This document shows, piece after piece, positions 9,069 to 56,405 of a stretch of 63,038 bases of DNA. A program made the translations under genes and the position numbers. Below the pieces are notes generated by a model that was not told where the DNA came from, searched no databases, and saw nothing but the letters and a program-made list of their open reading frames with translations. Source of the stretch: Chara braunii (Eukaryota > Plantae > Charophyceae); contig BFEA01000034.1 in assembly GCA_003427395.1 (NCBI GenBank), positions 2,065,089 to 2,128,126 on the forward strand. The letters run 5' to 3'. How positions within the stretch are numbered: position 1 is the first letter of the stretch; every line of letters begins with the position of its first letter.

Positions 9069-9095
9069 ATGGTCGGACGGCCTGCCGCCAATACG
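9069..9095 (+). pseudogene. gag: Probable first 9 codons of element A gag (MVGRPAANT), cut off by insertion of element B
   Basis: ATG lies ~120 bp after the PBS. It joins in frame to EAQNVNVQLGGAPV at 43424 (-) when B is removed and the inversion is undone. Confidence 0.5.
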
Positions 9096-11279
9096 GTTCA
9101 GTGTTGATACGATCGGTGCGACCATTGGGCAGCGACGTGAAGACACTGGTTTCAATTGACGTGATTACCGGTCCGGTGCTGGCAAGGTGCCGAGATAGTG
9201 TACTGCAGTTCCATCCTGTTATTTTAGGACCGGGGCTGGTACCGTCATTCTATGGGCACTTACGAGGAGTTGGGAAGAAATATTACAGTCTCCACTTGTC
9301 ACTTTGCTAAGGTTTTTGCTCTCGCACTGGTATTGTACACGTGCTCCTCGGCGTGACGTTCTGCATTGACCCGGTATGATTGTAGGATCGGCACTGACAA
9401 GGACTCGGTCGGATCCTATTTCTCAGGCTCTGTAATCGGCACGGTACTGAAACAACGTACTATGGCTCGACTTCATAGGTTCGACACTGTCATGAATGAG
9501 ACGACGATTGGTGTGCGCGGTTCAACTCTGTTATTTCCTTTCTGGTGCTAGGACTTGGATCGTGGCATTGGTGGTCGCAGATGGTACCCTTGTGCCTGTG
9601 GCGACCCTGCAACCCTGGTACTCGAGCGGAGACCGCCTTAGGGGCCCACAGCCTTTGGTGTCGTGGGAATTTAGACCGGGCGTCGACGGTAAGCACATCC
9701 GGCAAATGCGACCAGGGGAACTGGTACCAATGGTACCGGTGCGCTGTCCCGTGTCGTCCGAGCTATTCAAGGGAACGGGGGAGTCGGGACTTATGGGATG
9801 CTGTTGTGGAATAAAAGGAGGGTATTCAGAGTGGCGGGGGGACAGTGAGCCTGGCGTCCACAACCCACTTGCGCAAAGCCCGGTTGAGGTACAACGGGCA
9901 CTGGACTTGGGGCTCGGGCATGGAGGAGGCGACTATTGGGGGAGACTTCTCTGAGGCGCGCATGGCGTACCCAGCCCACCTCCTCATCGGGGTGAGGTCA
10001 GCGTGAGAATCCTGCAAGGCGCTCCCTATGTGGGAGTGCTTGAACAATTGGGCGAGCTCGGAGTGTGTGCAGCGCGCTCACGAGTGATTGAGTGGGAGTA
10101 TCCAGGCGGAGGATCGAGAACATGGGCGCGACGTGAAGCACCAAAGGACTGGCAAGAACCTGGGGGAAAACAAGTTGGGGGATAACGAGCAAGTACGGAA
10201 TACTCAGCGCCTAGATCATCGGTTGACTTCTCTACCATAGTTGCAGCACGGGCCGCCCTAGATGACGTGCAGGCAGGTGCGCGACAGAGAAGAAGACGAC
10301 ACGGGACATTCGAACTTGGGCGAACTGGGGAAGGTCCTGGTGTGCCACCCGTACACCGCCCACAACGTAGTTCAATCCCGAGCTCGTTGGTGAGATGCCT
10401 GCGAGGAGAGCAAGTCAACAGGGGGGGGCGAACTGAGCTGTGCGGGGACACTTGGAAGGAGCGTAAGACGTACATCTGCCAACTGTGTCTGATTCACATT
10501 GAAGGTGAGCTGCAGTATGCCCAATTCAGGGGGCGAGGACGTGAGATTTTTGCTCACCCGGGCTGGCGGATGAATGGGCAACCAGCATGAGCTGGATAAG
10601 AGGGATTGAGCAGTAACCAAGAAACATGGATCCAGCGAAGAAAGGAGAGGCATTCAATTGCGCACTGTGTACCCAGCGAGGGAGCGCGTGATCAGTCACG
10701 CGGACAACGGTTTTCTCACGAGCGGCGTGACCCCGCCATATCTCTTTGGAGACGAACTGTGGGTTGACGGGATAGAGTGACCAACCAGACTCAAGTGATC
10801 TGTCAATCAAGCGATCCCGCCGGTAGCAGCTTCACTCTGTGAACCATCAATCAAGCGGTTCCGCTGCTAGCGGGAACAACCCTTTTCAGCGATCTGGTTA
10901 TCAGTGATCCGCTTTTGAGTGATTTGTCAGCGGGCTATCGTTACCAATCTGGCAGCGAAAGAGGTAAGGGCGGGAAACTCAGACTCAAGCGTAAGTCGGG
11001 ATATCGTATCTGGGGGCCTGCCTGCGACTCGCGTAATCGGGGCGAGCAAGTCAGCACTTACGACCATGCCGTTTAATTTTATTTTATTATGATCCCAATC
11101 ACAGACAAGTGTTGGGGAAAGGTGGGGGGGAAAGCGAGCTTGTGCACAGAGAAGGGGAGAAGCGAACAACTTGGAGGGAGTGAGGCAGACGAGATAATTA
11201 TATATATATACATTTACGCAGATATACGTGCGCACTTGTGTCTCTCTGCCTACGGTTTACCGGGCAGTTCTGTTTGTGA

Positions 11280-11327
<48 letters not shown>

Positions 11328-11360
11328 ATATATACATATATATATATATATGTATGTATG

Positions 11361-11401
<41 letters not shown>

Positions 11402-12056
11402 CCAGATTTGAAAAGCAAAATTCGTCTCAGAAACATCGCTTCAATGAACTCACCAGATCTTGGTCATGCTTAGATGCGAAGATTGATTTATTACGAGGGG
11501 GATGTTTGAAAGGCACTGTGTGACGAGCGAGCCCGTGTAGTGAGAGGTGGAGACGAACTGCTTGGTTTTGTGCAGAAGAAGCCAGGAATATCTGGGGCGC
11601 AGTGACCGCCCCAAAGGGGGACCCTGTTTATGACTCTCAACCCTGATCTTAGGGTGCGGGGGGGTTGTGACTAAGATATTCAGAGACATTTTGTATAAAC
11701 ATTGACGGAGGACTTGGTGGCTTCCACTGAACAAAACGGCTTCCTCAACCGGTGCATCCTGAACTAGTGGAAGAGCGATCTTCTATCTCTGCCCGAGAAA
11801 GGGAATCGTTGTCTGTTTTATGAGTTCGAAGTGCGGGCGTTTAATCACTCATTTATCCTCACTGTTCATACTGAACGAATATATTAAATCTGGCAGGCTC
11901 GTGTATGCAGTCAATTCTCACTGGTCAAGGGTAAAGTTGAGGGTGTGCTTATGAGAGAGTGAAAGGGAGCACCTCGGAAGTGGGCGTGGCGAGTGACAGG
12001 CGTCGTTGCCCTTGGCTTCGGCGAACAGTAGGCGGCCCCTCTCGGGTTTCCTCACA
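9096..12056 (+). mobile_element. LTR B, 3' portion only (lacks the first ~1.1 kb), acting as 5' LTR of element B
   Basis: Colinear with 30161-32869 apart from ~0.4-kb indels. Ends CTCACA and is followed by a PBS. Confidence 0.85.
11282..11401. repeat. (TA)n/(TATG) microsatellite
   Basis: Read directly. Confidence 0.95.
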
Positions 12057-12059
12057 ACT

Positions 12060-12077
12060 TGGCACCGTTGTCGGGAA
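12060..12077 (+). promoter_or_regulatory. Primer binding site, tRNA-Asp type
   Basis: TGGCACCGTTGTCGGGAA lies 3 nt after the LTR-terminal CA. It resembles the TGGCGCCGTTGCCGGGGA PBS of plant Athila-type elements. Confidence 0.75.
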
Positions 12078-20963: not shown

Positions 20964-23900
20964 ATGGAATCTGACACAATGGGTCCACATCCGGATGAGG
21001 AACAACAGACCGCTGTGTACCGAGCGTCACCGGATAGTGCTCTGCGGGACCTCAAGGAGCGTATCCGACAGAACGCTCCATTGAGATGTGTGGAGCGACC
21101 CGACGACAGGGAGCCCGAAGTAATGGCCTGCCCAGTCATTGCAGAGCCAGATAGGGCAGCTACGGTGGTACGAATGGAGAGTCGAACCGAACCTCCGAGT
21201 TTTCGGCGAGATTCGAGTATTCGACATTCACCTACGTATGAACAAAGAGATGATAGAGGTGATCGAGGAAGGGATGGCTGGAGGGACCAGTATATCAGGG
21301 AGCAACTTTGGAGAGACAGAGAGAGGGTCACACCGCCCAGACGGATGTATGACCCACAGACGGGCGAGTCGTATTCCCTACCATACGAGAGGAGAGACAT
21401 GTTCATCATCTCACACCAACCTTCGGAGTTGGACACCAACCCCCCTATTTTCAAGGGATACAGTATCACCAAATATCTTGAGAAGTGGGAGCTACACGCA
21501 TACCGTAGTCAATGGTCAGAGGACGAGATTATAGATAACTTCCTATTTAACGGGGATCTGAGCCTGAGTCAGGAGATCAAAGAAGCCCGACCCAAAGATA
21601 GACGATGGGCTACCTATAAGGCCAGTCTCTACCAGCTCTACAAACTAGAAGACGTTAAGTATTCAATCCAAGTATTGGAGCAGTTGACTCAGGGAAAGGA
21701 CGAGAGTGTTCGGGCTTTCGGAAAGCGATTCCAGAAGGTATCCGATGCCCTTATTGCAAGAGGGAAGTTGTCGGAGGTCGAGAGATGCACGATCTTCCTC
21801 GGTCGGCTACCCAGAGGGAAGCAGGAGGGAGTACTAAGAGAAATGCCTCACGATAAGTTAGACTTTGTCACGCTACTCCAGTTGGCAATGAAGGCTGAGG
21901 CCGATGACTACAAGGATTTACTCTGGAGGGGAATGCAGCGTCGGGACTTTTCCCACTATCGGGAATACGAGACTGATAGGTGTCCAGATTTTAACGATCA
22001 GCCATGGGCAGAGTGGCGATATTTGATGGACAAAGACAAACCATAACGACCGAGGGACAACGACACGGTGATAGACGAGGTGAGAGAGATGAGAGAAATG
22101 ATGAAGGGAATGGTCAGGCAGATGGTCAATATTGAGACTAAGGCGGGAGCTACTCGGGACAAGTCGGGGTCCCCCTATTCCTTGCGATGGGACCGTAGGA
22201 ACACCAACCCGTGGAGGAGCGTCAAGGATTGGAACCCTCGCACGCTGGCGGACTACCATGCAAGAGAGATGGACGATGATGCCAGGCGACGTAAAGATGA
22301 TGACATAGACAGAGACCGCCAACGTGACGGGTATCGGGGAGTAGACTCTTTTAGTCGAGGAGGAAGGCTGGAGAAGTATCCGCGCAGTCCCAGATATGGA
22401 GACGGGTACCGGAGCCCAGACAATTTCAATTCCAGCAACAGAGAGGATTCCCGCGGCAGATGGGAATAACACAGGGATCGCCATGATGGGAATCGTGGTG
22501 TATACGAGAGAACAAAGTGAGATGGAGGTCGCCGGAAAGAAACACGCGGGCATTATGACCGAGGAGGATATCCTGCCTCGCCTGGATATCCAAAATCTCC
22601 GAACTATCCCAAGTTCCCGGGACCGTCTACCCAGGATGTCAGACCCGCAAGAGGGCCAACTATTAGGAGCACGGAAGAGCGACCCCCTACTCCCAGGAAC
22701 TCTTGTATCTATTGCAGGGCAGATGATCACGTGAAGAGGGACTGTCGTGACCTCAGGCGGGCAATAGAGGAAGGACTTGTCGTACTTGATGAACGCAAGT
22801 ACGTCAAGTGGGCGGATGACCTCGGCGATGTATCGATGTTCCCTTCTATGAAGGAGAACATTGAAGCCAGGTGTGTACGACCAAGTAAGGGTAAGGAAGT
22901 GGCGAGGAACCAGAGTGTGAGATTGAGTTTGTCTTCTGATGATGGGGCGCCAACGACACCTTTACGAGTAGCGGCGACTAAGTCCGCAAGGGCGTCTTCC
23001 TCTAAGAAGGCTGACACCGATTACGTAATGGCAGAGAAGGATGGGCAGAGGATTGAAGGAGAGGAAGTCATACTTTCGCCGCGCAAGCGAGGAGCCCGGA
23101 AGCTTACCATGAAGAGCAGCTTGGACGATATAGATACGGTAGTTGTATAACCGGCTGAATGCGTTCACGTTCAGACGCGCGCGTTCATACCCCCCGGGGC
23201 CGCGTTCAAACACGCTGCGCGCCACATGGCGCAAAAAAATTGAACGCGACCCCAAGGGGCGCGCGCGCCCGTTACAGACTACAAGGTGGTGGGCCTCGTT
23301 CAAAGAACCCTGAAAGTGCAAGAAAAAAAAAAAAAACAAGGCCTACCCCCCCTACCACATCACCCCCCACCAGATGCAAAAGGTCCTTTTGTTTGGGGGG
23401 GGGCGGGCAGGGGAATCCCCCTAGCACGACTCAGACGGCCCATGCAGGCTATCTGTAGGGTCCTCGCAGCCATGTAGCGCAGACCCCCCCACCGAAATCA
23501 AGGCAGGCAGTGAGTATGAAGTATAGCTCGAGCTGCCCGAATATATACTCAAGATTTGACTTCAGGTCTGTGTTTCAGCAGTTATGGGTTGCTCACGTAG
23601 GGCCTGCTGGTCTCTGCACGTGACTCTTAGGGTCTGGCTGCACTACTCACCAAATGTGCAAAACTAGAATAAATCTTCTGCAAAACATGGAATAATACGC
23701 CGCCATATGTTTTGTCTTTTGTGCATGTGGTGAGTAGAGGCCCTTAGGGCCACTGCACGTATTCCTAAGAAAAGAAAAACCAGAAAAAATGAAAAACGAG
23801 AAAAATGAAAAATGAAAAAAAAGAAAAACAAGAAGAAAGAAAACAAGAAAAAAAACAAAACATATGGCGGCGTATTATTCCATGTTCTGCAGAAGATTCA

Positions 23901-25484
23901 TTCAAGTTTTGCACATTAGGTGAGTAGTGCAGCCAGACCCTAAGAGTGTCACGTGCAGAGACCAGCAGGCCCTAGCTACGTGAGCAACCCATAACTGCTG
24001 AAACACAGACCTGAAGTCTATTCTTGATTATATATTTGGGCAGCTCGAGCTCTGCCTCATATTCACTGCCTGCCTTAATTTTTGTGGGGGGGTCTGCGCT
24101 ACATGGCTGCGAGGACCCTTCAGATAGCCAGCATGGGCCGTCTGAGTCGTGTTAGGGGGATTCCCCCGCCGCCCCCCCCCCCCCCNNNNNNNNNNNNNNN
24201 NNNNNNNNNNNNNNNNNNNNNNNNNNNNNNNNNNNNNNNNNNNNNNNNNNNNNNNNNNNNNNNNNNNNNNNNNNNNNNNNNNNNNNNNNNNNNNNNNNNN
24301 NNNNNNNNNNNNNNNNNNNNNNNNNNNNNNNNNNNNNNNNNNNNNNNNNNNNNNNNNNNNNNNNNNNNNNNNNNNNNNNNNNNNNNNNNNNNNNNNNNNN
24401 NNNNNNNNNNNNNNNNNNNNNNNNNNNNNNNNNNNNNNNNNNNNNNNNNNNNNNNNNNNNNNNNNNNNNNNNNNNNCTCCCCCACCCCGCACAACCACCT
24501 GCGCAAACTCGTCAAACGCGTTCACGCACGTCCAGTGAACACGTATTCACGTCGTTCATACCCTGAAAGTGAAACGCGCGTTCAATGAACGCGCGGTAAC
24601 ACAGTAAGGTAGAGCCTCTTAGACACGCTCTTAGGTAGCCCATGCAGTGTACCACACTTGAGTACTTGGCGGCCTCGAGACCTGCGCGAGACGAGCTACA
24701 GATGATCACGTGCAAGGGACACATTCCTCTGGGAGACGAAGTCCAGGTGACTTCCAAACCGGAGGTACCGTCCGTGGCAGTATCGGGAGTGTGCGCTAAG
24801 GCCGAACGCGCAGCGACAGTGTATTTGGATGGAATGGAAGGTGTGCCTCCTGACAAGTTTTACATTTTAGGGAGTGGGACAGTGGAGACCATTCTCAACG
24901 ACGAGGTAATTCTCCATGCGGTGATTGACAGTGGCAGTGAAGTCGTCATCATAGATGAGGAGTTCGCTGTACGCCTAGGGCTGGACCTCGACAGGTCCTA
25001 CCTATTTGAGATAGAGACAGCTGATGGGAGAAAGCAGAAGATTTTTGGGGTTTGTCAGAAGGCGGCCATTGAGGTCGAATGGTTGCGCGTACTGATGCCT
25101 GTTTTTGCTGTCAGGGATTGCAGCTCAGAGTTACTATTAGGGCGGACGTGGTTGAGCCATGTTCACGCGGTGACTAGAGAGCGACCGGACGGAAGCCAGA
25201 TGCTATCCATCAAGCGTCCGGATGGTCGACGAATTTTGATAGAGACAGTTGAGTCTCGTGATTCGAGAAACAAAGCGATTCTGGCAGCAGGTGGTCGCAA
25301 GCCAGTCACGCTCGGAAGTCGCTCGTTGAACTTTCGCGAAAAGAAGTATGGGTCCTTGCTCACAGAAGAAGGGGGATGCATAGTAGAGGTCGAGGACTTA
25401 GGCAATCGAGTCCTTGTGGGAGGGAACTCCTATCCTAAGGCTAAAGATGAGGAATTCGGAGGTATAATCTCTGTGTCTTTTTAA
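20964..25484 (+). pseudogene. gag: Gag-protease of element B (in-frame stops; interrupted by the insert at 23143-24607)
   Basis: All pieces are in one frame. Capsid-like region (FKGYSITKYLEKWE; QGKDESVRAF), zinc knuckle CIYCRADDHVKRDC at ~22704-22745, protease motifs AVIDSGSE and LLLGRTWL. Confidence 0.9.
23143..24607. mobile_element. Non-coding foldback/MITE-like insertion with 5-bp target duplication GGTAG
   Basis: GGTAG at 23138-23142 and 24608-24612. Removing the insert restores the reading DIDTV-EPLRH. Internal inverted arms at ~23395-23712 and ~23857-24185. Contains an N gap. Confidence 0.8.
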
Positions 25485-28400
25485 GGGCGCAGCCCCCTAC
25501 GGGGGGCGACCAAAGAAACACAAAACAGTAGCTCAGAAGGTTAAGACGGTTGCGGTGGCCCGAGAGCGATTCACACTAGATGGGGTATCTGAAGAAGAGA
25601 TCGCTAGAAAAATTAAAGAGAGGAAGAAGAAGGAGCCGCAACGGTTGACAAAAGAAAGGATAGCGGAGATGGATATAGGAGATGGAAACTTGACCGAACA
25701 AGAGAAGGGGCGCGCGCTAGAAGTACTTAAGACCTGCGACAAGGCCATAGTTTTTAGTGACGCGAAAAGAGGGAGAATTGATCCTAGGTATGCCAAGCCT
25801 GGCAGGATCTACACGATCCCGCATACTCCATGGAATGATGCCGGGTGGAAGTTTGCTCAGAAAGAGAAGGAGGAAGTAATTGTCTTTCTCAAAGAAAAAA
25901 TGGCGTCACATATGGCTGAGTCATCTGATAGCGCGTACGCGAATAGGTGGTTCTTCTTAAGGAAGCCTAATGGGAAGATCTGATGGATTCATGACCTTCA
26001 GAAGGTTAATGCAGTTACAATTCGAGACGTGGGCTCCATACCACATGCTGATCTGTTAGCGAAAGGAGAGACGGGCATATCTATTTACTCTGTCTGCGAT
26101 CTATTTTCACGCTATGATGAGATACCCCTAGATCCTAGGGATAGACATCTCACGACCATGCACGCGCTGCTCGGCTTAGTGCAGATGATGGTCGTGCCCA
26201 TGGGATGGACCAATGGAGTCGCGGTTTTCCAGATAGCTATGGTAGTTATTCTAAAAAGGACTTCATTCCTGATAAAGTTGAAGTATTTCTGGACGACTTC
26301 CCGATTAAAGGATGAGACACAGGTTGCTCCTGGTGTCAGGAGATTCGTAGAGCAGCACCTAACGGACATCTACGCGGTTCTAGAACAGCTAGATGAAGCT
26401 AACTTGATGGTCAGCGAGACAAAGAGTCGGTGGGTTGTATCGACAATTAAGATTCTAGGGTTTATATGCGATTCAAGGGGTCGTCGAGCGGACCCGGGAA
26501 AGTTAGAGAACTCCTGAACTGACCGACTCCATTGGATAGCGCTACTGAAGTCCGCAAATTCTTAGGAGTTGTAGGCTACTGGAGGATTTTCATACGTGGA
26601 TACGCGGAGAAGACAGAACCTTTGCGAACTCTCCTTAGGAAGACGGAGCGGTGTTACTGGGATTCTCCCCAAGAGCTTGAAGTACAAACCCTCAAAGAAG
26701 AGTTTAAAGAAGGGGGATGAATCCTAGGCGTGCCATTTTTCGAGGACGAGACCAACAAGCCATTCATAGTGTCTACGGATGTTGGGCCGTGTTCGGCTGG
26801 AGGGCTGCTTGGTCAAAAGGACACCGACGGCAAGGAGAGCCTAAGCAGGTTTTACTCTACACAACCGGCAAGCCACTCACTTTGCGTCTACTTTCAATTC
26901 TAATTTGCTGGCCGCTAAAATTCGAGAGTCGTACGCTCAACACCGCTGAACGCAACTACAGTCAGTTTAAGAAGGAGGTGTTAGTTGTTCTACGGTGTTT
27001 AGACGCCTTTAGACACTACATATACGGGAGACGATTCGTTCCACGGGTAGATCCTACAGCTGTGGCGTCAGTTTTACAGAAGGAATTCAGTCTGGCGGAT
27101 CCCACAATTGCGCGATGGCTGATTAGGATCTGACTCTACGATTATACTGTAGAGAGGATCTCGGGAACGAAGAATGCGGTTGCTGATGGACTTTCACGGA
27201 TTCCGATCGAGTCGGAGCGACCAATAGCGGCAGTTGCACTAACTATGACTAAACATAGACGAACAAATCGCTTCCTGGTTAACCTCTATGAAGGGAAGTA
27301 CCGGGCCATAGGACTGCATCTGTCATGAGAGGAGAGTTCTGATCCGGAGATTAGGAGACATGTGGCACAGTACTGCCTTCGATCTGACCATTTATTCCGC
27401 CGACCTACGGGATCAGGAATGCCATTACGAGTAATCTGTGACCCCGAGGAGAAGCAGTCCATAGTGGCAGAACTACATGATGGTGTGGTTAGCGGGCATA
27501 GAGGAGTTAAAGGGACATATGAGAAGGTTCGCCGATTATACTGGTGGGAAGGACAGTATAAAGACGCCGAGAAGTATTGTGTCACGTGTGAGGAATGTCA
27601 GAAGGAGTCCCTTGTCAGGTACAAGGAACCGTGTCATCCTTCTTATCCTACTAGACAAGGCGAGAAAGTACATATTGACCTGGTAAAGATGTCGAAGGGT
27701 GTAGGGAATATGAATTATGTAGTGAACATCAGAGACGATTTCACTGGGTTTGTCGACGGCAAGCCTATCAGAACGAAGGTCGCTAAAGAAGTTAAGAACT
27801 TTGTTCTGGAATATTTGTCTAAATACGGGTGTGTCAGTAAGATTGTGATGGACAGAGGGGCGGAGTTCCTGGCAGACGAGGTGCAGAGTGTGTTCAAGAA
27901 AGCGGGAGCGATAGTATCGATAGCTACCGTCTATCACCCTCAATCCAACGCACCTGTAGAACGAGGTCATCAATCATTGATAGCGTCCTATCGAAGTGGT
28001 GTAGAGGTAAAGATAGTGACTGGTCAAAATATTTTCGATATGCGATATGGGGAGATAACGTAACAGTCCGAGCTAGCACAGGATACCCGCCTTACACTCT
28101 GTGGTTTGGGAGGCATTGCCCTCTGCCCATAGAGTTTCATGTCAATAGTTGGACTACAGTTGATTGGGCGGATAGTATGTCGCGAGAGGAGCTTCTGGAA
28201 GCTAGGACTAGTCAGATAGCCTACGGATTAGAGGACAACCTCATGACCGCTGTCAATCGACTGGCGGTGGAAAGGGAGAAAGGCAAGGTGAGATGGGATA
28301 AAGATATCAGAGTTAGAAAGGAAAAGATTAGAGTCGGCGACATGGTGCTTCTCTATCACGCTACATTGGAAAGGACATGGTCAGGGAAGCTGGCTAATAG

Positions 28401-28560
28401 ATGGATGGGTCCCTACCACGTAGTTGCTGCACTCAATTGGGGAGCATATATGATTGCTGAGCTAGATGGGTCGGAGTGAAAGGATCCTGTGGCAGGGGCA
28501 AGGCTGAAGTTGTTTAGGCCAAGGGAAACTCCTGCTCCTGCCCTGAGACTATCAGATCCT
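25480..28560 (+). pseudogene. pol: Pol of element B: RT, RNase H, integrase (stops and frameshifts)
   Basis: RT motifs PMGWTNG and VFLDDF (frameshifted), FLGVVGYWRIFI. RH motifs ERNYSQFKKE and NAVADGLSR. IN motifs HDGVVSGH..CEEC, HIDL, DRGAEF, HPQSNAPVERGH and WMGPY. Confidence 0.93.
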
Positions 28561-29034: not shown

Positions 29035-32000
29035 TGTCGGGCGGCCGAATGTCAGTCGACCACCCGAAATCCGATGGATTACACCTTAGATTGTCTGCCT
29101 AGAGAGGGATTGACCGGGACGTTCGTCCGAACCGTAAGGAAAAATTAGGGGTCGGGGAGAGACCCCTAATATTCTCTATGTCGGCTATTGAAACTGACTC
29201 TTGAAATTAACGTGATGAACAGGCGCGCCTACCGCGCCTAGCGCCTACCCTTTTCCCTTCGATCCGAGGTTGTTCGCGATGCGGTCGGCCTCGGAGTCGG
29301 GACGTGGTGCTAGGGCTCGGCGCGCCCCTTTTACACTAGCCAATTGATGAGGGAATGAACCCTCAAAATTTCATTAACTCTACTGACAAATTTAAAATTG
29401 CGAAAAAGAATTAAAAATAATAAAAGGAAAGAAAGTAAATGAATATTCGTTATTTTATTAAATTTCGTCAAAATTTATCCTTGATGAAATTATTCGCAAA
29501 TTTCTTCGATTCCAGTGACGGGGTTAAAAATAAGAAAAATAATTAAAAATGGTAAAAAGGGACGAAACTAACGATTTTTTTATTTATTTAATTAGAGTCT
29601 ATGAAATTCCATTCTCACGGATTTTTGTCAAAACTACCCATTTAATCCCTTTCATTGGTTTGATCCGATTCTTGCTAATTTTCTTATGTTCCGCCAACGT
29701 TCCCTGATTTTCCTGGTTTTCTTGACTTTCCTGATATTACCTGATATTCTTGATTATTACCCTCCCTATCAACTAGAGTATTCCTTTTGGGTGAGTGAGG
29801 TCCTTGTTCCACGAACTTTGGTGACGGCGGATGGATCAGCGAGGCGGGGTTTTTGGGGTTACAGCAACATTCTCGGTTTGGCGCTGCGATTGGTACTTCT
29901 ACAAGGCGGCCGCCGGACTCTATTATGGTGGTATGGATGGTGGTTTGGGATAAGCACGTCACTCTGGTTCGGGGCAGGTTCGGTACTATCACAGCGCATC
30001 GAAACGGTACGGTGCTCTGTACTACTGGTACGGCGGCTCGGTACAAGTCGGGACGCTGGGTTGAAACAAACATGGTACACAGGTTTGGGCACGCCACGGT
30101 ACGCTGGTTCAGGTCAGGTGCGGTATGGTTATTGGGACAACGTTGGTACAGGCTACTACTGTTCGGTGTTGATACGATCGGTGCGACCATTGGGGCAGCG
30201 ACGTGAAGACACTGGTTTCAATTGACGTGATTACCGGTCCGGTGCTGGCATGGTGTCGAGACAACATACTGCAGTTCCATCCTGTTATTTTATGACCGGG
30301 GCTGGTACCGTCACGCTATGGGCACTTACACGGATCTGGGAAGGAATATTACAGTCTCCACTTGTCACTTTGCTAGGGTCTTTGCTCTCGCACTGGTATT
30401 GTACACGTGCTCCTCGGCGTGACGTTCTGCATAGACCCGATATGATTGTAGGATCGGCACCGACGAGGACCCGGTCGGATCCTATTTCTCAGGCTCTGTA
30501 ATCGGCACGGTACTGAAACAACGTACTATGGCTCGACTTCATAGGTCTGACACTATCATGAATGAGACGACGATTGGTGTGCGCGGTTCAACTCTGTTAT
30601 TTCCTTTATGGTGCTAGGACTGGGATCGTGGCATTGGTGGCCGCAGCTGGTACTGTTGTGTCTGTGGCGACCCTGCAACCCTGGTACTCGAGCGGAGACC
30701 GCCTTAGGGGCCCACAGCCTTCGGTGTCGTGGGAATTTAGACCGGGCGTCGACGGTAAGCACATCCGGCAAATGCAACCAAGGGAACTGGTACCATTGGT
30801 ACCGGTGCGCTGTCCCGTGTCGTCTGAGTTATTCAAGGGAACGCGGGAGTCGAGACTTATGGGATGTCGTTGAGGAATAAAAGGGGGGAATTCATAGTGG
30901 CGAGGGGGACAGTGAGCCTGGCGTCCGCAGCCCACTTGCGCAAAGCCCAGTTGAGGTACAGCGGGCACTGGACGCGGGGCTCGGGCATGGAGGAGGCGAC
31001 TATTGGGGGAGACTTCTTTGAGGCGCGCATGGCGTACCCAGCCCACCTCCTCGTCGGGGTGAGGTCAGCGTGAGAACCTGCCGAGGCGCTCCCTATGTGC
31101 GAGTGGAGCGCCAGACGTACATCTGCCAAGTATGGCTGATTCACATTGAAGGTGAGTTGCAGTTTGCCGGATTCAGGGGGCGAGGACGTGAGAGTTTTGC
31201 TCACCCGGGCTGGCGGATGAATGGGCAACCAGCATGAGCTGGATAAGAGGGATTGAGCGGTAACCAAGAAACATGGATCCAGCGAAGAAAGGAGAGGCAT
31301 TTAATTGCGCACTGTGTACCCAGCGAGGGAGCGCGTGATCAGTCACGCGGACAACGGTTTTCTCACGAGCGGCGTGACCCCGCCATATCTCTTTGGAGAC
31401 GAACTGTGGGTTGACGGGATAGAGTGACCAACCAGACTCAAGTGATCTGTCAATCAAGCGATCCCGCCGGTAGCAGCTTCACTCTGTGAACCATCAATCA
31501 AGCGGTTCCGCTGCTAGCGGGAACAACCCTTTTCAGCGATCTGGTTATCAGTGATCCGCTTTTGAGTGATTTGTCAGCGGGCTATCGTTACCAATCTGGC
31601 AGCGAAAGAGGTAAGGGCGGGAAACTCAGACTCAAGCGTAAGTCGGGATATCGTATCCGGGGTGAGCAGGTCAGCGCTTACGACCGTGCCGTTTAATTTT
31701 ATTTTATTGTGATCCCAATTACAAACAACTGTTGGCGAAAGGTGGGGGGGAAAGCGAGCTTGTGCACAGAGAAGGGGAGAAGCGAACAACTTGGAGGGAG
31801 AGAGGCAGGCGAGATAATTATATATATACGTATACGCAGATATACGTGCGCACTTATATATATATATGTATAACTTGATTTGAAAAGCAAAATTCGTCTA
31901 AGAAACATCGCTTCAATGAACTCACCAGATCTTGGTCATGTTTAGATGCGAAGATTGATTTATTACGAGGGGGATGTTTGAAAGGCACTGTCTGACGAGC

Positions 32001-32869
32001 GAGCCCTTATAGTGAGAGGTGGAGACGAACTGCTTGGATTTGTGCAGAAGAAGCCAGGAACATCTGTGGCACAGTGACCACCATAAAGAGGGACCCTGTT
32101 TATGACTCTCAACCCTGATCTTAGGGTGGGGGGGGGGGTTGTGAATAAGATATTTAGAGACATTCTGTATAAACATTGACGGAAGACTTGATGGCTTCCA
32201 CCGAACGAAACGGCTTTGTCAACCGGTGCATCCCGAACTAGTGGGAGAGCGATCTTCTATCTCTGCCCGAGAAAGGGAATCGTTGTCTGTTTTATGAGTT
32301 TGAAGTGCGGGCGTTTAATCTTACTCATTTATCCTCACTGTTCATACTAAACGAATATATTAAATCTGGCGGGCTTGTGTATGCAGTCAATTCTCAGTGG
32401 CCAAGGGTAAAGCTGAGGGTGTGCTTATGAGAGAGTGAGAGGTTAAAGGGAAGGGAAGGATACAACGCGAAGTGTCGGTTACCTGCTCATGCTCTTTTGA
32501 TTCGATACTCTCCCTTGCTTCTCTTGTTTTATTTATATTTCCGTCTCTTGGTTAACTATACCCAGGCCTATTGTGTTAATTTCCCCTTGCCATAAACCCT
32601 CCCCTGCCGAACTGCAACAGAAAGGGTCATCATAGTTTTCGAACCCCCTGCTGAAAGCAATCAATTATGACTAAAAAACAAAAATTACATAAAATTACTC
32701 TATCGGAAACAAAGGACGACGGATCGGTTCCGACGCGTGTGTGGCAGGCAAAGTGGACATTCAACCCTGCTGATCGCCGAGGACCTCGGAAGCGGGCGTG
32801 GCGAGTGACAGGCGTCGTTGCCCTTGGCTTCGACGAACAGTAGGCGGCCCCTCCTCGGGTTTCCTCACA
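29035..32869 (+). mobile_element. Full-length LTR B (~3.8 kb), probably a recombinant of two copies
   Basis: TGT...ACA ends. The first 1.1 kb matches the reverse complement of 43423-44514 and the remainder matches 9096-12056. Followed by ACGA. Confidence 0.85.
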
Positions 32870-34400
32870 ACGAGCTATTTCGGAATCATACAACACCTCT
32901 TCACCTCCTCTCATTGTGGCGCCAGATCTTTGTGACCAAACCAGTGCTGTGTTTTGAGTGACATACACTTCTTTCTTCGGGTAGATCCTTAAACCCCTAA
33001 ACCCTTGCTCCTCTCCCTGGTGTCTGATACCCTAGCAATATTTTTTCCACTTTCCTTTCTTAATTTCTTCAATCTCTCCCATACTATTCCAAATCCACCA
33101 AGCAGTTTGATTGGGGAAGGGAGGGATCAGAGAATTCTTCGTTGCGTCTCATCGGGATTGCTGTATCGATCTTAGTCCACTCATGAAAAAGCAGAAGGTA
33201 GTCCCTCACGAGATCCTTTTATCAGGGAATTCATCGTTGGGTCTCATCGGGATTGTTGTATTGATCTTAGTCCACTCATGAAAAAGGAGTCGGTAGTTCC
33301 TCACTAGATCCTTTCTCCCTTGTTCCTCCCTGGGTCCTTTTGTCCCCCTTTCCATTCCACTTTTCCAATCCTCCCGTTGTCGCCTCCAAGCCAGGTCAGG
33401 CTAAATTCCTTGATTTTTTTGTTGGATATGTTTTTGTGAATGTAGTAATTGGATCTGAGCCTTAAACTTCTCAGAGGGTCCATAGTATTTCTGTTTGGAT
33501 CTGTTGTTGTATGCTTTCCGTTAATTCTGGTCCTTCCAGTTTTGCTCTTTCCATCTCGTATGTGCAGCGTCGTTGCCAGAGGGCCTAGAGTACCGCCCGA
33601 CGTCCCAGTTTGAACATACTGCTGGTGAAATCATCTAGTTGGTCCTTAGGCCAGGTTTCGCACAGCAAGGCTTTCCAGTCCCACGGCCACTAGATCTGAC
33701 TTTCTAGTTGTTCCCCGATTCTATCGCCTCCAACCACTCTAAGACCGGATTATTGGAAAATTCATGTTCCAACTGCCTTTGCACTATGTTATGCAATCCT
33801 TCTGACAGGTTATCAAACTGGACCCAGAAATGATCTTTGAGCATCACCTGTCGATGGCGGGATGCCTCCCCCTGAGGTGCCCCTGGAGGTTTCCAAGGGT
33901 GTATAGTGACAACAGACCCTTTGCAGCTGAGGGATTCCAAGGACACAAGGTACCGTGCATAGGATTCTTCCACACATAACGAGTCAAATGCGGGGATGCA
34001 GCCATTCGGGTAGCATGCTTTATGTTCTAGACAGTAAGTTTGGCAAAGGTCTTATGAAGTGGGGGATGGGCAGCCTTCTGGATGGTAGTGTCTAAAGCCA
34101 ACACTCTCCCACGCACCACATCATTCGCACACACACTCACACCCGTGTTGGCTGAAGACCTTACTGATACCGACTGGGAGGATCCAATTGACTATCTCAG
34201 TTGGTTGGCACCAAGAGTGCCACAGGCGACTCTGGGGATTGACCCAACAACCTCCTGAATGCCACTTGTGTGCCTAACCAATTGAGCTAGGCCGCTGGAT
34301 GGAGCCCAGATTCTTCGATTGCAGGAGGGGGAATAAAAAAAAAGAAACGATTAGCAAGCTCCTAAGGGTTGTGCCACCCCACACGCGGCCAGGAAAAAAA
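32870..34400 (-). mobile_element. 5' part of a decayed LINE-like element (continues at 44515 +)
   Basis: Minus-strand ORF remnants, for example 33704-33973. The reading frame ..YDSEIAR joins the sequence at 44515 through the shared TCGT. The outer boundary is approximate. Confidence 0.5.
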
Positions 34401-34532: not shown

Positions 34533-37139
34533 TGTGACGCCCAACCTCACACCCAGCGCGACTTCCTGATCGGAGTGGGACGGGGCCCCGAAAGTGCGAA
34601 GAAGGGGGTGTGCCAAGGATTTTAGGAAAGTGGGGGTGGAGTCTCAGGTCGGAACTGGGATCTCCTGTGGCAAGTTTCAGGGGTAAAAGCACGAGAGGGG
34701 ATATGCAGATCATGCCTTGGCGCTTTAAGCCTTATGAGAAGGAAGGTAGACCACCTCTCGTGATTTATGCATAGCGGGAAAACTGCAGATGTCGTGCAGC
34801 GTAGGGTCGATGGCATGTGCAGTACATCCAAACCAAAGTTCCCGGGGTACTCTTCTACGACCCCAGCGTCGACAAATCTAAACACTCTTGCATTCTCGAA
34901 CAAAATCCCCATAACATTGCCCCTGCCAACGAACCGCAATTTCATCAGCTTTAAACCCCAAAATGGAAATCACCATCGATTTTGGTTTCGCCTTCGGGGT
35001 TGATTGCGAGGTTCGGCCAGTTGTCGGCGCCGCTTGTAACAGGCTTCGGATTCTGCCGAGGCGGGCCGTAAATGGAGGTTGTCCATTCGACGCTCAGCCT
35101 CGGTTCGAGTCTGTCGGGTAGTTCCCGAGGCCCGGCGCGCCGGTAATGCCGGCAACCCTCGCACGGCGAGTTGGGCCAATAGCGAGCTATGGAATTCCAC
35201 GGAACCACTGGTCCACTGTGAGTTGGTGATAGGGGAGGAGAAGATGGAAGGGAGGTGATAACGACTAAACCCGGGAATATGTAGTATTGAGTATTGTTCG
35301 TATCGGGGTAGTCTGGGCCTCTAGGATTGCTTGTTATAGCCGAGTGGAAATCCCCCGCGCATAGTCGGTCGTGCTCCGTCAGACAGGGGAATTCAGGATA
35401 TCTTAAGTTTCTCCGTAGTCTACGTTGTTCGCCTTCCCAATACTCACGATATTCCAGGTCCCTCAGTTTTTCGTAGTCGGATGTCCAGGAGGGAGATCTC
35501 GCAGCCATGTCCGTCTAGTAAGCCGATTCCCCCGCATCCTTACACGGGGTTAAGGTTGATTCACGCGGACGAGCGCGTACGTGGCGACTCGGCTTTCTCG
35601 AGATCGCGATCGTGCGCGCGCATACACGTAAGGAACAACCGATTGATTCTGGTTACGTTCAGCACAAGTGCAACTATCCTACCAATCACTACATGCCATA
35701 CATGTGACGAAGAAGGACGATCAACTCATCACAGCACTTCCGAGCGTTAACGACGAGACCCCAAGAAATCAAGACGACCATTTTCAATCAGTTCTGAGCC
35801 TATAGCTCCTACAAATGAACATTGGTTAGAGACGAAATAGACATCGCAAAACAGAGCTAGAAATCCAAAAAGATAACTAATAAAAAATATATATATTTCA
35901 TTTCATGCAATGCATATCGAATAAAATCACAGGAAAATCCGAGACGATGTACAAGCGAAGTTCAAAAGAGGAGGGCCGTGATAACAAAATCGGCCATACC
36001 ATGATCCAAAATTGTACAGATGAACAGGGGAAGACGGAGACAACAAAAAAAAACTTTATCACGTACCCACACAACCTCTCTCTCTCTCTCTCTCTGTCTC
36101 TCTCTGTTCTCGATACCGGCAGTCCGTCGCCGCGTATCAACGCAGAGTTGCCATCCCGCTTGGTTCAAGCATGCAAGCCAGGTTCGCCCGTGCGCCACAG
36201 TCCGTCGCGGCCCCGCACGTCAACCCCGCATACCCGACACCAACTCGTCGGATCGCCCAACTCTCACACTCACTTACCTTCCAAACTTGCTCATTAGCCG
36301 ACCCTCACTGATCGTGCTAACCTCGAAACTCTTAGAGAGACAACTAATCGTGCTTGCAAAATTTATAGCGTGCACGCTTGAGCGAGGGATACGGGATTAG
36401 CCCTAAGTGATGAGAAGGAAAAAAGAGGAAGTGCCTACGTCTGCATGTCTGGGCCGCGGCGCAGGGGACTGAGCCACTCTCCCCGTATCGATCCCCTCAT
36501 GCAGGCATAGGAACCAATCAGGTCAGGGAAGAAGGTGTGCATGCATGGGCGAGCACAAGGTGGGAAGAGGGAAGAACACGAAGGACATCAAGAACGAGAA
36601 GATTACGGTTGCAATTACACCCGCCAAAACTTTTACAGTTACGTGCAATATTAAGGCGCAAAAAGAAATCAGAACCCAGATCTTGTCACGGCAAGGCGTG
36701 CGTAAGTAGGGAGCGCCGCGCAGCAAAATCCTGAAGGCCCCTAAATTCCTATCTTAAGTCCTAATTACAAAGGAAATATTCCGAAGAAAAACAATTATGT
36801 GAGCCCGTGGATGCTCGAAACCAGTTGAAAATTCAAAAACGATATTCCCGCGCGATGATCGTCCCAAAATCCCCAGTGCCCACAGCAGAACAAGAAAGAA
36901 AAAGCTCTGGTACAGTTATTCTTCGCGCTCGCTAAGGCGCGATTCTCCAACCATTGGCACGGGATCTTCCCAACACCGATCCGACATTCTCAGCAGAAAA
37001 AAACGAAAAAGAAACGACGACATCCATGCCAATTGCTCGCCCGACCCGTCTACCCACTGCTCACCCCTTCGACCCATCGTATTTCCCCAAAACAGCTTCG
37101 CGCAAAAAATCGCGAGGTTTCAGAAAGTGGTTCGTCACA
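34533..37139 (-). mobile_element. LTR A2 (3' LTR of element A, now inverted)
   Basis: TGTGACG...CGTCACA terminal inverted repeats. Homologous to 6238-8935. The outer flank reads TACT on the minus strand. Confidence 0.85.
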
Positions 37140-37755
37140 TATGTGACGCCCAAGGGGTTTCAATCTTGTGCAAGCTCCCACTTGCACCCATATCTCTCCA
37201 AGGTGCACGTGTCATTACCGTAGGATAAGAGTGTAGAAGTCATTCTGCTGACACGTCCTAATCCTTGCACCCATCTTTAGTGTTCCGAGGGAGGGGGGTA
37301 AGGGAGTCGGAATGCAGGTGCGAGGGGTGGGGGATGTTCTCTCGGGAGTGCGGGTAAGAAGCTTGCCATCCCTGCTACTGTCCTGGGAAGTTCGAGGTAC
37401 CTGATGATGCGGTGTATACGTGGGAAACGATGGCTGCCATAGGGAAGTGAAGCAAGGTAGTCAGGATTAGAGAGTGGAAAAGGTACGAAGTACGACCGCA
37501 CAAAATTGCTCGTGATCTGTACACACAGGGATAGCCCCTGTGATTGTGCAGTACACTTCGATCACATTGTGATCCCGCCATGAGGCGCTGAAAAGAATGA
37601 TGTGAAGGCAAAAGGAGGGAAAGACGCACTGAGCAGTGGGATGCAGGTACACTGTGGCGGCGAGGCGGATAGTGTAGAATTGGTAGAAGAGGGAGTAAGG
37701 GAAAGGATTCTGGGGAAATACGAGTCGGGTGTCGATTTGCCAGAGTGTAAGGTAA

Positions 37756-38603
37756 TCAAGGGGACGACGGGATAATGATCGGGGACGTAGCCCGATGCCC
37801 CGCATCGGCACGTGCTCGAACTGAGGGACGGCGGGAAGGGGAGGGGGAGCGGTTTCGTTGCCTCCGTGTCGGCGCGCTTGAAGCCTCTGCGGCGCAGCGC
37901 TCATCTTCCTTTGTCGCCGGCTCCGGATCTCTGGTCGGATCGTCTGGAATCGGCAAGGCAGTCCCCGCCACTTGCTCCAATGTCCGCTTTCCTTCCGCGA
38001 TTTCTGCCCGGCGTTGCTCGGCTTCAGCAAGGTCCTCTCCGTGTGTCCCCGCCTGTTCCGCCCCTTCTTCCTCGCTCTCGTCCTCCTCCTCTTCCTCTTC
38101 ACTTATCGCCCCTGACTCATGCTCACTGTGCTCGCTGTAATACTCGTCCTCTTCGGGGGTGTCTTCCGATTCGTCTCCCTCTTCCTCTTCTTCTTCTTCT
38201 TCCTCTTCTTCTTCTTCTTCCTCTTTTCCTTCTTCTTCTTCTGACGTCGGCTCCCCTCGATCCAAGAAAAGAAGATTAATTATCTCTGCGGGGTTTAGGT
38301 GGTTACCTTGTGACGGGTAACTACGGTTGTCCCAATCGCCGTCCAAGCACGCCGACCACTGTAGATACGGCAGCTGCTAGGAGGATTAAGAGTTCCCCCA
38401 CAATTAGCTATCGATGTCTTGGCTCCACCGATCCGAAAACGAATCCCAGTAAATCCCCTTCCACCCCCGTTCTCCACGCCTGAATAGTGAGCAACTCCAC
38501 GTCCTCGTTCGTGGCGGGGTGCTCGCTGTCTTTGGTCCAGTTCAGCCTGATCTCGACTAAACACAAAGATAGAGTCTCGGAAGTTTGCCACCACCCTTGC
38601 CAC
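37756..38603 (-). pseudogene. Acidic, poly-Glu ORF in the 3' internal region of element A
   Basis: ORFs 38295-38603 and 37756-38346, with a long E/D tract and an R/S/P-rich tail. Confidence 0.55.
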
Positions 38604-38702
38604 TGTTCGGGCTGATACGCGGATGATGAACTTTTCTGATCACCGAGATGTGTCCGCGTGGCGCTAACATCCGCTCATTGAGTACCTGTTCCGTGGAAAA
38701 AC

Positions 38703-39293: not shown

Positions 39294-39296
39294 GTG

Positions 39297-52394: not shown

Positions 52395-52764
52395 ATTTTT
52401 CATTCCAGCATTCATGCTCTACCGTGTGGATCCTAACCGGAGGAACTAGCTTTGCGTCCAACCGCCCTTTCTGGTGATCATTGAAAACGAAAGCTAAATG
52501 GAACTCCTGACACGCCTTCCTTATCAACTGAGTTTCCTCTGCTGTTAGAAACCCTTCCACTCCTATTTTCATGATATCTGCTACCTCATCTGGTATGCGA
52601 TGCCCTTCCGTTGCCCGCCTCTCCCTTATAATCCGTAGGATCTCTTCTTCTTTTTCCATGGCCTCTTCCCTTGATGTTTCTACTAGGATCGAGACTGGCT
52701 TGGCCTTCTTCCCTACGGGTTTGTATTTTTGCATACTCCCTTCTGGGATCGTTCTCCTAAAAAA
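52395..52764 (-). pseudogene. pol: N-terminal stub of element C pol (pre-RT region), truncated
   Basis: YKPVGKKAKPV..GRLDAKLVPPVRIHTVEHECWN is homologous to element B HKTVAQKVKTV..GRIDPRYAKPGRIYTIPHTPWN. Confidence 0.85.
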
Positions 52765-55700
52765 TGAACGGTCGGGATTGGCCTTGCCACCTCCCATTGA
52801 GGCAGTAGCCTTTCTAGATTTCTTCTTCAAATCTTGCAAGTGTTATCGGATCTACCCCAACTTTATGGTATCTAATAGCTTTGATGAGTTGCAGCAAGTC
52901 AGGGATTTCGAGTACTACTTCTGTCGTTTCCTTCCGTCTCTCCTTTGGCTTGGGGAGGCTGGCCCCAAGTTCAATCTCCGACTCCTTTTCTGCGAGCATG
53001 ACTCCTAGGACCTCGCCCTTCTGTCTCCTTTTCTTTAGAGGCAAACCCATTTTGATCCATTCTTTTTTGCTAAACGTCTCATCAATCATAATTTCTACCC
53101 TTTCCCTCATGCCTTCCATTCGTGCGAATGCGCCTTTCCGTGCACTTTCTTCAAACGTCGGCGACCAGGTTGCCAGCTTACCCTTGGGGGGATCCCCTCC
53201 AGTTCCGAGGAGTCGGAGGATTTGTCCGCGACCAGTTACAGGATCCTCTATGTCTACCATATACGTGCCATCATGCAGGTGCATGCCAATCATTTCTACA
53301 TTGGCGCACCAAGGTCTTCCAAGGATTATGTCATGGTCCATTTCTTCCATGACGGTCATCCGTTGAAAAGACCAGATGGATTCCCGAATTCCTGCCCTGA
53401 CCTCACATTTGGTGACATACCCAGTGAAGGGAATTTCTCCGTCCGCTCCCCTGATACTCCCTGCTACCTCCTTGTTCACTGTGCACCCCGTGATCGTTGC
53501 GAAATCCCGTCGCATGAGGGTAATTTTTGCGCCGCCATCCACTAATGCATCGGTGTGGTGAGTTCCGACCTGGACTTTAAGTTTTCCTNCAGGCAGTGCG
53601 TGGAAGCTAAGTTTAGTGCCGGGCAGTGCTCTCATTACTTCGCCACCTTCTCGGTCCAGCAGATTCAGACGAATATCGGCAAAGGCTTTTTCCAAGTCTT
53701 CCAGGCCCCCTGGAATGCTTTGGAGGTTAGAGACTACTTGTGGCGCCTCGACCTCCTCGGGTCCTTGTTCCTGTGGTTCCAGAGCCTCCTCTACTTCTAC
53801 ATGTTTACTCGTCAATAGCTGCCTGAGGCCCTTGAGCAGTCTCGGGCTTGCCTGCAGCATGGTCTGGAAGGATACTGACACCATGGCGCCCAGGAGTTTG
53901 CTCAGAGTGTCATCTAATTCGGGCAGTGTCAGAATCGGGATCTGGTACCTGAACTTCTTCTTTGCCGCCGTGGCTTTATCTACCAGTTCCTCTTCCCTCG
54001 TTTTTCCATAAACCTTCTCATGTTCCCCGGCCTCAGCTTCCTCCTGATCTGCTCTAGCCCCCGCGACTTCTTCCATTACTGTGTCTCGGATGAACTTCTT
54101 TTCCGCGCCAGCCCGTTGGGTAGTAATGTTTACCCTATCCTGCCCATTACTTTCCAGGATGAAGTTGACCTGGGGCCCGCGCCCCCTTGGTTGGTCCCAG
54201 ACAAGCTCAACTACCGGCTCTGCTTCTACGACAACTATATCCAAGTTATTCAGGAGGATGACGACACGCCGCATTCCTCCTGGCGAATTCCAGTTTACGC
54301 GCTCTCCCTGAGGTCCAAGAATCTCACCTTTGAGTGACCTACTGCACCTCTGTCTAATGATGTCGTGGTTAAGTCTCGGGCAGGTCCTTATGAAATGCCC
54401 GACCATTGTACAATATTTGCATTGTTCATTGGCCAGGTCCCTTCTGGGGAAACCTCGATTGGCTACAGCTGCCAGTATTACGGCTTTTTGGGGCGGGAGG
54501 GGGGGTCTGGACACCTGTGCCTGCATTACTAATAGCGCATTTTCCATTATGTCCATCTTGCTGTCAACCCCGTGCACCTTTCATGCAGACTCTTTATTCC
54601 CTTTTTGACCTTATCCCCCGTTTTCCCGGTCAGGTCTATAACCTCCCCTTCCTTAAGCAGAGTCAGGGTCTCAGTTACCACTATCTTCTCTGCAAGATCT
54701 GTTACCATACTGAAATCCACATCCCTTGTGTATTCAAACTTGCTGGTGTGCTGGTATGCTGACAGAATCTTATCCTTATCAAACTCGGAGAACTGCCTGA
54801 GGAAGTATTTACTCATTATGCGGTCCGTTACCCCGGGAATTCGCAGCGCCACTAACGTAAACGCCCTTAGGAAATCGTTGTAAGTCGCATAGTTTTTTCT
54901 CTGGACTGCTGCTAATTCGGCCTCTGTTGCCATTTTCTCTGCCTTCAAATATTTCCTCATCATCTCGTTCCTGGTTTCTTTCCAGGATCCACTGGACGCG
55001 ACGATGACCATAATGTCCCTTCCCAAGCTTAGTGACACGTGCTGCCCTAGGTGCTCCATCTTTTCCTCTTCCGTCCATTTTAGTAAGGCTGCTAGGTTCT
55101 CATAGTCTATCAGAAACTCCGTAACGTTTGCCCCATCGAACGTGAGTTTCTTCTTTGCATCTGCGAGATATCCCTGGTTCTTGTTTAGTGCCCGGGTGAG
55201 GGTGGTGACTATCCTCTTGAGACCACCTTCGGAGCTACCCACTTCTCTTGCTGCACTGGTCCCTTCCCCTTCCTTGCTTTCCCTCTACTTCTCCCTGGTT
55301 TCCGGCGTTCCTTCTGGGTCAAACCATCCTAGCACCCTTTCCCTAAGGCTCCAGAGTCCGTTGCACGCCCCTGTTACTTTCGGCGTGGCTGGCAGTCAGC
55401 TAGTGCCGTTGTCAATGGCAGGCAGGGTCATAGCGTTTTCCGTCCCCTCCGCCGGGGGGTCGTTCTTGTCCTTCCCCTTCTTGCTAGGCGTTCCTTTGTG
55501 GCTATTATCCTTTCCCTCATACCTGGCCTCGTCCTGACCGGTCCTGCGTCCCTTACGTGACCCTGCGCCCTGGGGGTCCTCCTCATCCTCGACCATCATC
55601 TGCTCGATAAGCCTTGCCTTAAATTCTGCAGTCCGCTTTTCTATCTCTGCCAATTTACGACTGGCATCCGAGACTTTTGTCTTTTTAGGGGTGACTCCTG

Positions 55701-55957
55701 CTGAGTTCCGAGGGCTTGTTCTCATATCGTTTCCCCCTACCCTGTTTTCCTGAGGTCCCCTTTTGCTACCCCCAACTTTCCCCGAGCTTTCTCTAGTTGA
55801 GAGGTCCTTTCCGTCTTCTCGGGTTCCTTCCAGTTTGGCTGACTCTCGATCCCCCGTTGATCCCTCGTTTCGTTCCCCATCCCCATTCGTGCCCTNATTC
55901 CCTCCGCTCTGCTGGTCATCGATCCCTTCCTCAGTCGTCATTTCTTTACCTAGCCTG
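52757..55957 (-). pseudogene. gag: Gag-protease of element C
   Basis: FDGANVTEFLIDYE, zinc knuckle CKYCTMVGHFIRTC, protease motifs ALVDGGA and IILGRPW. Contains stops and a frameshift. Confidence 0.88.
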
Positions 55958-56405
55958 CACATGGAAAAAAAAAATTTGCGAAAAAATGGCCGGTTGTTCA
56001 TAACTGCCCTAGTCCCGGCCCTAAAACCCGCCTATTCCCATGTTTTTTTTGTGTCTTACATTAATCGGTCCGACTCTCCTGGCTTTTCTTTCCCAGGGCG
56101 TCCTTCAGGTTTTCTCCCGCCGGGGGACTTGCCGCCGCTGCTTGGCATTTTATTACTGCCACGCTTTGGCTCTTAGGGCGGTGTTTGAGCCCAATGGCCT
56201 CCTTATCGAGGATGACCCTTTTGGCTTTTCGACCTTCAAATGCCCCAGAGTTTTCTAGTGCGGGTGGTCTTCCTAGTTCCTCCTTGCCGTGCTATCGGGT
56301 TGGACGGAACTCCAACCACTGCCCCCCCCCTTTTTTTTTGGTGATAGTTGCCTTCTTATCTTAGTACCCGTCCCTTATTTCCCTATCTTTTCCCGACGCG
56401 TTTTC

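Follow-up and report, generated by a model that had tools for sequence, protein, structure and literature searches.

A Ty3/gypsy retrotransposon of Chara braunii carries its protease (PR) and its reverse transcriptase (RT) in different reading frames, and the locus raises the question of how, and in which direction, ribosomes pass from one to the other. The window analysed is a stretch of 63,038 nucleotides (contig BFEA01000034.1, positions 2,065,089 to 2,128,126 of the forward strand). The initial annotation had proposed a +1 shift at a slippery stop codon (UUU-UAA) in element B, accompanied by a hairpin with a cUACGg tetraloop. Programmed recoding at the PR/RT boundary is indeed very likely, but in the -1 direction. 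Comparison with related sequences indicates that the site is very probably a remnant, shorter by one T, of a likely programmed -1 frameshift located after the protease in a Ty3/gypsy clade whose named close homologs are all from Chara braunii.

The junction in the window's copy of element B

The features of element B, all on the plus strand, are as follows.
9092..12056, +, 5' LTR (approximate ends), a direct repeat with 30157-32870 at ~93% identity
21210..23160, +, gag (Pfam Retrotrans_gag, weak; tblastn frame map)
24639..25484, +, end of the Gag-protease frame, with an aspartyl protease domain (Pfam gag-asp_proteas, E 5e-9; ORF list)
25468..28476, +, pol: RT, RNase H and integrase (Pfam RVT_1, Integrase_H2C2 and rve)
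25478..25483, +, degenerate slippery site, five T's and an A (six T's and an A in most family copies, judging from homologs)
25481..25531, +, remains of the zero-frame tail, 16 residues long in the family (LRAQPPTGGDQRNTKQ-stop), in the window's third frame
25484..25491, +, spacer of 8 nt from the A of the heptamer to the 6-bp stem, read from the sequence
25492..25507, +, GC-rich hairpin of 6 bp with loop TACG, the likely frameshift stimulator
30157..32870, +, 3' LTR (approximate ends), a direct repeat with 9092-12056

Sequence and ORFs confirmed the layout first described: the protease ORF terminates in TCT TTT TAA at 25476-25484, the pol ORF (25468-25983) is +1 relative to it, and HKTVAQKV lies 13 codons past the TTT. 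The hairpin was likewise found where it had been placed, at 25492-25507, beginning 7 nt past the TAA stop. Its folding energy is -16.9 kcal/mol (z -2.6), and 2 of 200 shuffled sequences folded equally well. Comparable hairpins start at only 17 of 63,008 window positions, and the MFE of its 30-nt segment ranks second among 1,287 windows over PR-pol. The hairpin is more than chance. No pseudoknot was evident 3' of it; -1 shifts can be stimulated by simple hairpins (PMC3203594).

The window's B copy is the only one in which the P-site codon can re-pair in the +1 frame with a stop in the A site (TTT TAA, with its overlapping TTT). An in-phase X_XXY_YYZ heptamer is absent from this copy, and the relic tail is out of frame with its protease. 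A -2 slip in this copy was rejected because re-pairing would fall on TGT/CTT.

Element B is assigned to Ty3/gypsy by its gag-PR-RT-RNase H-IN order between LTRs (Pfam and the frame map). Its gag has in-frame stops at 22044, 22467 and 22518, an insertion separates gag from protease, and pol is interrupted by stops at 25981, 26718, 27131 and 27326 and by three further frame changes. The LTR pair has a K2P distance of 0.063 over 946 nt. With at least seven stops, three other frame changes in pol and LTRs 6% apart, the window's copy is dead, and a single-base irregularity there therefore needs backing from other copies.

Six T's in family B

There are 106 close homologs of element B, every one named Chara braunii. 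Twenty-two of these have no alignment to the last 112 residues, 30 stop short of the last residue and 54 reach it. The check suggested by the initial annotation, conservation of TTT-TAR with the +1 offset, went against it: 48 of the 54 run on past F in the phase given by six T's (next residue L in 45, S in two and F in one), and only four stop at F. One of the other two fuses to pol (F-F-K-G) and one is a spurious match. The L is mostly followed by R-A (V-S-F-L-R-A), and the zero-frame tail is exactly 16 residues long in 37 of the 48. Note that the protease frame joins the tail LRAQPPTGGDQRNTKQ-stop only when the T run is six.

Chara contigs and RNA reads gave the same picture at the nucleotide level. 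Among the matches listed, +T and +TT were the only indels at the site. An extra T behind 25477 was found in 10 and 18 contigs plus two RNA reads in the first alignment set and in 4 and 9 contigs in the second, and +TT in 1 and 1 contigs. All 12 pieces spanning 25477 among the matches listed were gapped (there were 196 further pieces), and loose ends requiring one extra T came from 18 and 25 contigs and 13 RNA reads. About half of the summed contig depth at 25477 was not scored as insertion, which gives no count of five-T copies, and this unscored depth comes partly from contigs ending inside the T run. The family evidence from Chara consists of predicted gene models and short contigs, and the DNA runs behind the contigs may be the assembly's own source.

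From these comparisons most family B copies appear to carry six T's and the window's B copy five. Six T's place U_UUU_UUA in phase, 8 nt 5' of the hairpin, with pol in -1, whereas the five-T run accounts for the apparent +1 offset and for the stop directly after UUU. The hairpin very likely belongs to the recoding signal, as first suggested, lying 8 nt past the family heptamer. The cUACGg loop is not family-wide, however: the loop codon is that for Met (ATG) in 37 of the 48 homologs, whose loop is therefore UAUG. No change at 25500 was seen among the matches listed from contigs at least 80% alike, and subfamilies closer to the window's B copy thus seem to keep the UACG loop. Three changes in Chara contigs, which may lie on different molecules, would lengthen the stem and are at most suggestive of compensatory conservation. 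The stem is also protein-coding in two frames.

By analogy with established -1 frameshifting, the hairpin would stall ribosomes that hold UUU in the P site and UUA in the A site, and a minor fraction of them would move back by one base through tandem tRNA slippage on UUU and UUA. The output would be much Gag-protease with the 16-residue tail and little Gag-protease-RT-IN, and the apparent +1 junction in the window's B copy would be decay in the T run.

A genuine +1 subfamily, in which a five-T lineage of B uses hairpin-aided UUU-UAA slippage, is the least probable of the alternatives that we weighed. UUU is able to re-pair on the overlapping UUU, the antizyme of Agaricomycotina shifts +1 at a UUU site (PMC5009743), and in two distant sister loci the frame of pol is indeed +1/-2. 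The four homologs of the 54 that stop at F include P0003, among the closest (79%). However, a base substitution can also create a stop at F without altering the -1 spacing, a form seen in a loose end supported by 9 RNA reads, and the closest members of the subfamily (P0004, P0058, P0061 and P0081) have six T's. Moreover, the window's B copy retains the 16-codon relic tail while dead elsewhere, and changes in T-run length turn up singly in relatives (P0071 and L024). The +1 shifty-stop reading is not supported and should be dropped. The outcome that the initial annotation had set against its own proposal, a continuous frame in most copies, was not found either: only one of the 54 fuses, and another three come into the pol frame within a few further codons (P0071, P0084, P0099 and P0100 are the four that need no shift).

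Element C and the distant relatives

By element C we understand the element on the minus strand at roughly 52,380-55,970.
52814..55970, -, Gag-protease; the frame breaks near 54590 and ends early in a TAG at 52816-52814, with a deletion just behind it
52758..52764, -, intact U_UUU_UUA; its phase matches the Gag-protease frame of the homologs (H-F-L), and pol is in -1
52737..52748, -, weak 4-bp hairpin, 9 nt past the heptamer (an alternative longer fold exists)

Element C had been cited as having the same arrangement as B, but the frame that contains its TTT TAG has already ended at the TAG of 52816-52814 and is displaced by the deletion just past that codon, which removed ~31 nt present in homologs. 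The frame ending F-I-F-stop, on which that claim was based, is used by none of 65 homologs. In the homologs' frame element C reads CAT TTT TTA, a -1 site. Seven of the 65 end their zero frame I-H/V-H-F-L-G/R-E, two fuse in frame (P0120 and P0165), one crosses by a jump in its gene model and the others fall short of the site. The z-score of the fold is -3.9 for 37 nt and -1.9 for 66 nt. For a third Chara family, a single gene model, P0208, gives T-F-F-R at this position, in the frame of pol.

Splicing or separate initiation of pol could bridge the junction with the heptamer being incidental, a reading that we consider very unlikely. In Ogre an intron separates GAG-PROT from RT (PMC6317226), and element B has an in-frame Met in pol at 25669. 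However, overlapping frames with a canonical in-phase heptamer recur in two or three families, and initiation at 25669 would lose a basic K/R-x-V-A-x-K motif found in relatives, the single-ORF ones included. No splice joint was seen among 69 and 18 RNA reads, thin data from one run (X6) that derive mostly from other copies and are little guide to expression; runs X5 and X7 gave no aligned reads and have no bearing on the point.

A metagenome scan gave 80 more distant loci with RTs 35-57% identical, 76 of them from one assembly series; 23 were too short upstream, leaving 57 assessable. In 40 of these (29 distinct junctions) ORF1 ends in G_GAU_UUU after the protease with pol in -1, and in 39 of the 40 the heptamer directly precedes the stop. 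In eight others the motif was present and the open-frame criteria failed, and nine had no motif in the searched interval, among them L047, whose site lies just beyond it. ORF ends served to define the junctions initially, and a scan limited to strict XXXYYYZ picked up G_GAU_UUU at no locus; the motif was therefore found rather than assumed. It is invariant, versus 34-48% conservation of the six preceding bases, in a motif-selected set with which the ORF-end set, made without selection, agrees. A protease at the end of ORF1 was detected by Pfam weakly in 3 of 12 loci and by similarity to the B protease in all seven tested, and ORF2 encodes RT, RNase H and integrase. The F-stop thus recurs in distant relatives, but with a -1 offset.

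A stem chosen by eye at the distant junctions pairs in 92.4% of 288 cells (32 rows) versus 22.6-45.8% in slid controls, and five of its nine pairs are changed on both sides (compensatory). A second helix suggests a pseudoknot. Structures begin 8 nt downstream of the heptamer in B, 9 nt in C (weak) and 5-6 nt in the distant relatives, and in B, C and the 40 intact relatives the downstream ORF is open in -1 without a start of its own near the junction. The in-phase X_XXY_YYZ heptamer within the overlap is found in family B (from protein phase and +T reads) and directly in element C.

A third alternative, which we rate a shade below splicing or initiation, is polymerase slippage on the T6 run, during transcription or reverse transcription, that would yield some in-frame mRNAs; alternatively, active masters could be single-ORF and the split copies by-products. 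In-frame forms do exist (P0071, P0084, P0099, P0100, P0120, P0165 and the +TT contigs), and P0184, the closest relative outside Chara, has a single ORF. Against this, split copies outnumber fused ones by ~11 to 1 and occur in high-depth contigs, and G_GAU_UUU with a covarying stem in the distant loci fits ribosomal slippage, not a homopolymer slip.

The split is not universal: protease and RT occur in one chain in 9 of 33 distant proteins, including P0184. In a quick RT tree (midpoint-rooted, 6 of 56 rows dropped, without named reference members) P0184 groups with the Chara families and the G_GAU_UUU loci form a separate branch; by this comparison the PR/RT split seems to have been gained or lost more than once, and the tree does not say which. 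In the sisters L044 and L055 the junction motif is AG_GUU_UUU, the spacer is 5 nt and pol lies in -2/+1, a candidate -2 shift seen at two loci. It is possible, and we propose it only tentatively, that one Ty3/gypsy clade repeatedly switches the way in which PR/RT is crossed: a single ORF, a -1 shift at U_UUU_UUA plus hairpin (Chara), a -1 shift at G_GAU_UUU-stop plus pseudoknot, and a natural structure-stimulated -2 shift at AG_GUU_UUU with a spacer one base shorter (L044 and L055). No relatives of the element were found in the viral contigs or prokaryote genomes searched, and Rfam gave only one match, far under its gathering score.

Comparison with known systems

In the literature searched, which did not include Gao 2003, Leng 1998, the Chara genome paper, Repbase or GyDB, we found no description of this junction in Chara or its clade, although one may exist. 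Skipper is reported to have been described at first with a pro/pol split. Its protease and RT are drawn in one ORF in PMC5006619, and the parts consulted of that paper, PMC3248453 and PMC12786077 contain no description of the Chara-clade junction. The portion of the 2019 survey covered here gives an overlapping-frame PROT/RT split for no plant lineage (PMC6317226), and a review of a 2003 survey, in the part covered, gives plant elements +1 shifts only. The junction is likely a known trick, the -1 frameshift, in an unusual position after the protease, as the initial annotation had remarked of that position.

Such a signal would explain why Chara gene models invent introns or truncate at the junction. 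If it operates as proposed, retrotransposons that are abundant in this alga, a close relative of land plants, would produce as much protease as Gag and hold back only RT and integrase.

Both U_UUU_UUA and G_GAU_UUU are known shift sites, for which the usual spacer is 5-9 nt (PMC5009743). The gag-pol signal of HIV-1 resembles that of Chara in having U_UUU_UUA, a stem-loop past a short spacer and a -1 shift (PMC5009743, PMC12789967). In contrast, the HIV shift comes before the protease and the proposed Chara shift after it, and the stem in Chara measures only 6-8 bp. Rous sarcoma virus/ASLV is a retrovirus with a pseudoknot stimulator and a heptamer other than that of Chara, whereas the Chara element is a Ty3/gypsy retrotransposon. 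The viral protease is nevertheless in the Gag frame with one -1 shift into RT (PMC12789967), and protease/RT dosing by a -1 shift in Chara would, if true, be this Rous sarcoma virus layout. MMTV and HTLV also have a -1 shift between protease and RT, although their pro-pol shift is the second of two, and in Chara gag and protease share one frame. Retand and Ogre of the Tat lineage are, like the Chara element, green-lineage Ty3/gypsy elements with GAG-PROT split from RT-RH-INT, but there the split is made by a stop codon or by a spacer/intron (PMC6317226).

The heptamer and nearby stop of the distant relatives (L001-L079) match the G_GAU_UUU site of Pea enation mosaic virus (PMC5009743). The latter is a plant RNA virus, whereas in the distant relatives the stop comes directly after the heptamer (39 of 40) and is followed by a local stem and a probable pseudoknot. 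The shifty stops of prfB and antizyme are similar only to the slippery codon before the stop in the window's single copy of B; family B does not keep the +1 offset and no regulatory logic is apparent in it.

Short natural cassettes are available from the clade, with heptamer, stimulator, spacer and direction all varying, and the relation of spacer length to shift direction is thus testable on natural sequences. The candidate -2 sisters L044 and L055 are the best lead. Their AG_GUU_UUU resembles the -2 site of PRRSV (PMC4937337), and their 5-nt spacer fits the preference of -2 shifts for spacers 1-2 nt shorter (PMC3458567). If the -2 shift is real, they would represent a retrotransposon that shifts by -2 and a naturally occurring example of a spacer rule described for synthetic constructs.

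The element B junction in other copies

Element B, the decayed Ty3/gypsy element on the plus strand, carries a 6-bp hairpin (25492-25507) 8 nt downstream of a degenerate U_UUU_UUA. Changes bordering this stem were found in other copies.

25490-25491 and 25508-25509: changes that would extend the stem at the element B junction, in contigs of sequencing run X1 and RNA reads of run X6

Changes at 25491, 25508, and 25509 occur in high-depth X1 contigs and in roughly half the RNA reads of X6. With these changes, the stem would reach 8 bp, leaving a spacer of 6 nt.

Among Chara braunii gene models, five homologous proteins (P0010, P0084, P0091, P0099, and P0100) constitute a subfamily of element B marked by ..KERNEEFG..I.., in which the frame following the C run varies, with three of the five reaching the pol frame. 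This subfamily may be an in-frame sublineage, may reflect an unstable C run, or may be a gene-model artefact.

Surroundings of element B

12057-12080: primer-binding-site-like sequence directly 3' of the element B 5' LTR, which we take to resemble a tRNA-Asp site
23160-24630: insertion between gag and protease of element B, with nested inverted repeats
6238-8938 and 34541-37139: long inverted repeat copies
29035-30137 and 43423-44514: long inverted repeat copies
37400-44000, minus strand: third Ty3/gypsy element, decayed

The nested repeats of the insertion have arms of 206 and 98 nt, and an N gap (24186-24476) lies within it; the insertion is possibly a non-autonomous DNA transposon. The members of the two long inverted pairs are 88-92% alike and are copies of other repeats that either flank element B or sit inside it. 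The third element of the window is differently related. Its protease and RT are also in separate frames, near 41400-41460, where no heptamer was noticed at the frame change.

Junctions of the distant relatives

L001-L079 (metagenome relatives), 20-65 nt 3' of the heptamer: candidate H-type pseudoknot, from segment pairing
L047:3017-3070: G_GAU_UUU junction at the end of ORF1, pol in -1
L044:2835-2900 and L055:2497-2560: -2/+1 junction (pol frame offset), group's stem present

An H-type pseudoknot after the heptamer is suggested in L001-L079 because a G-rich loop segment is complementary to a C-rich segment downstream (5-8 bp). This pairing had a mean score of 15.9 versus 12.1 for shuffled sequences, with p<0.05 in 10 of the 30 tested. 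L047 is a more distant element found in a different assembly, and its Pol shares 47-49% identity with the remaining loci. It too has an ORF1 (811 residues) ending at G_GAU_UUU, but its hairpin differs from that of the other relatives.

L044 and L055 are sister elements (77.5% DNA and 81% Pol identity), each with Pol open over 1,100 residues, that retain the group's stem although pol is in the -2/+1 frame. A rival to a frameshift is that pol starts at its own ATG, one being present in the pol frame a few codons upstream. As to a frameshift, ORF1 ends with CAG GTT TTT, one further codon, and TAG, giving AG_GUU_UUU with a 5-nt spacer, which resembles the PRRSV -2 site, GG_GUU_UUU.
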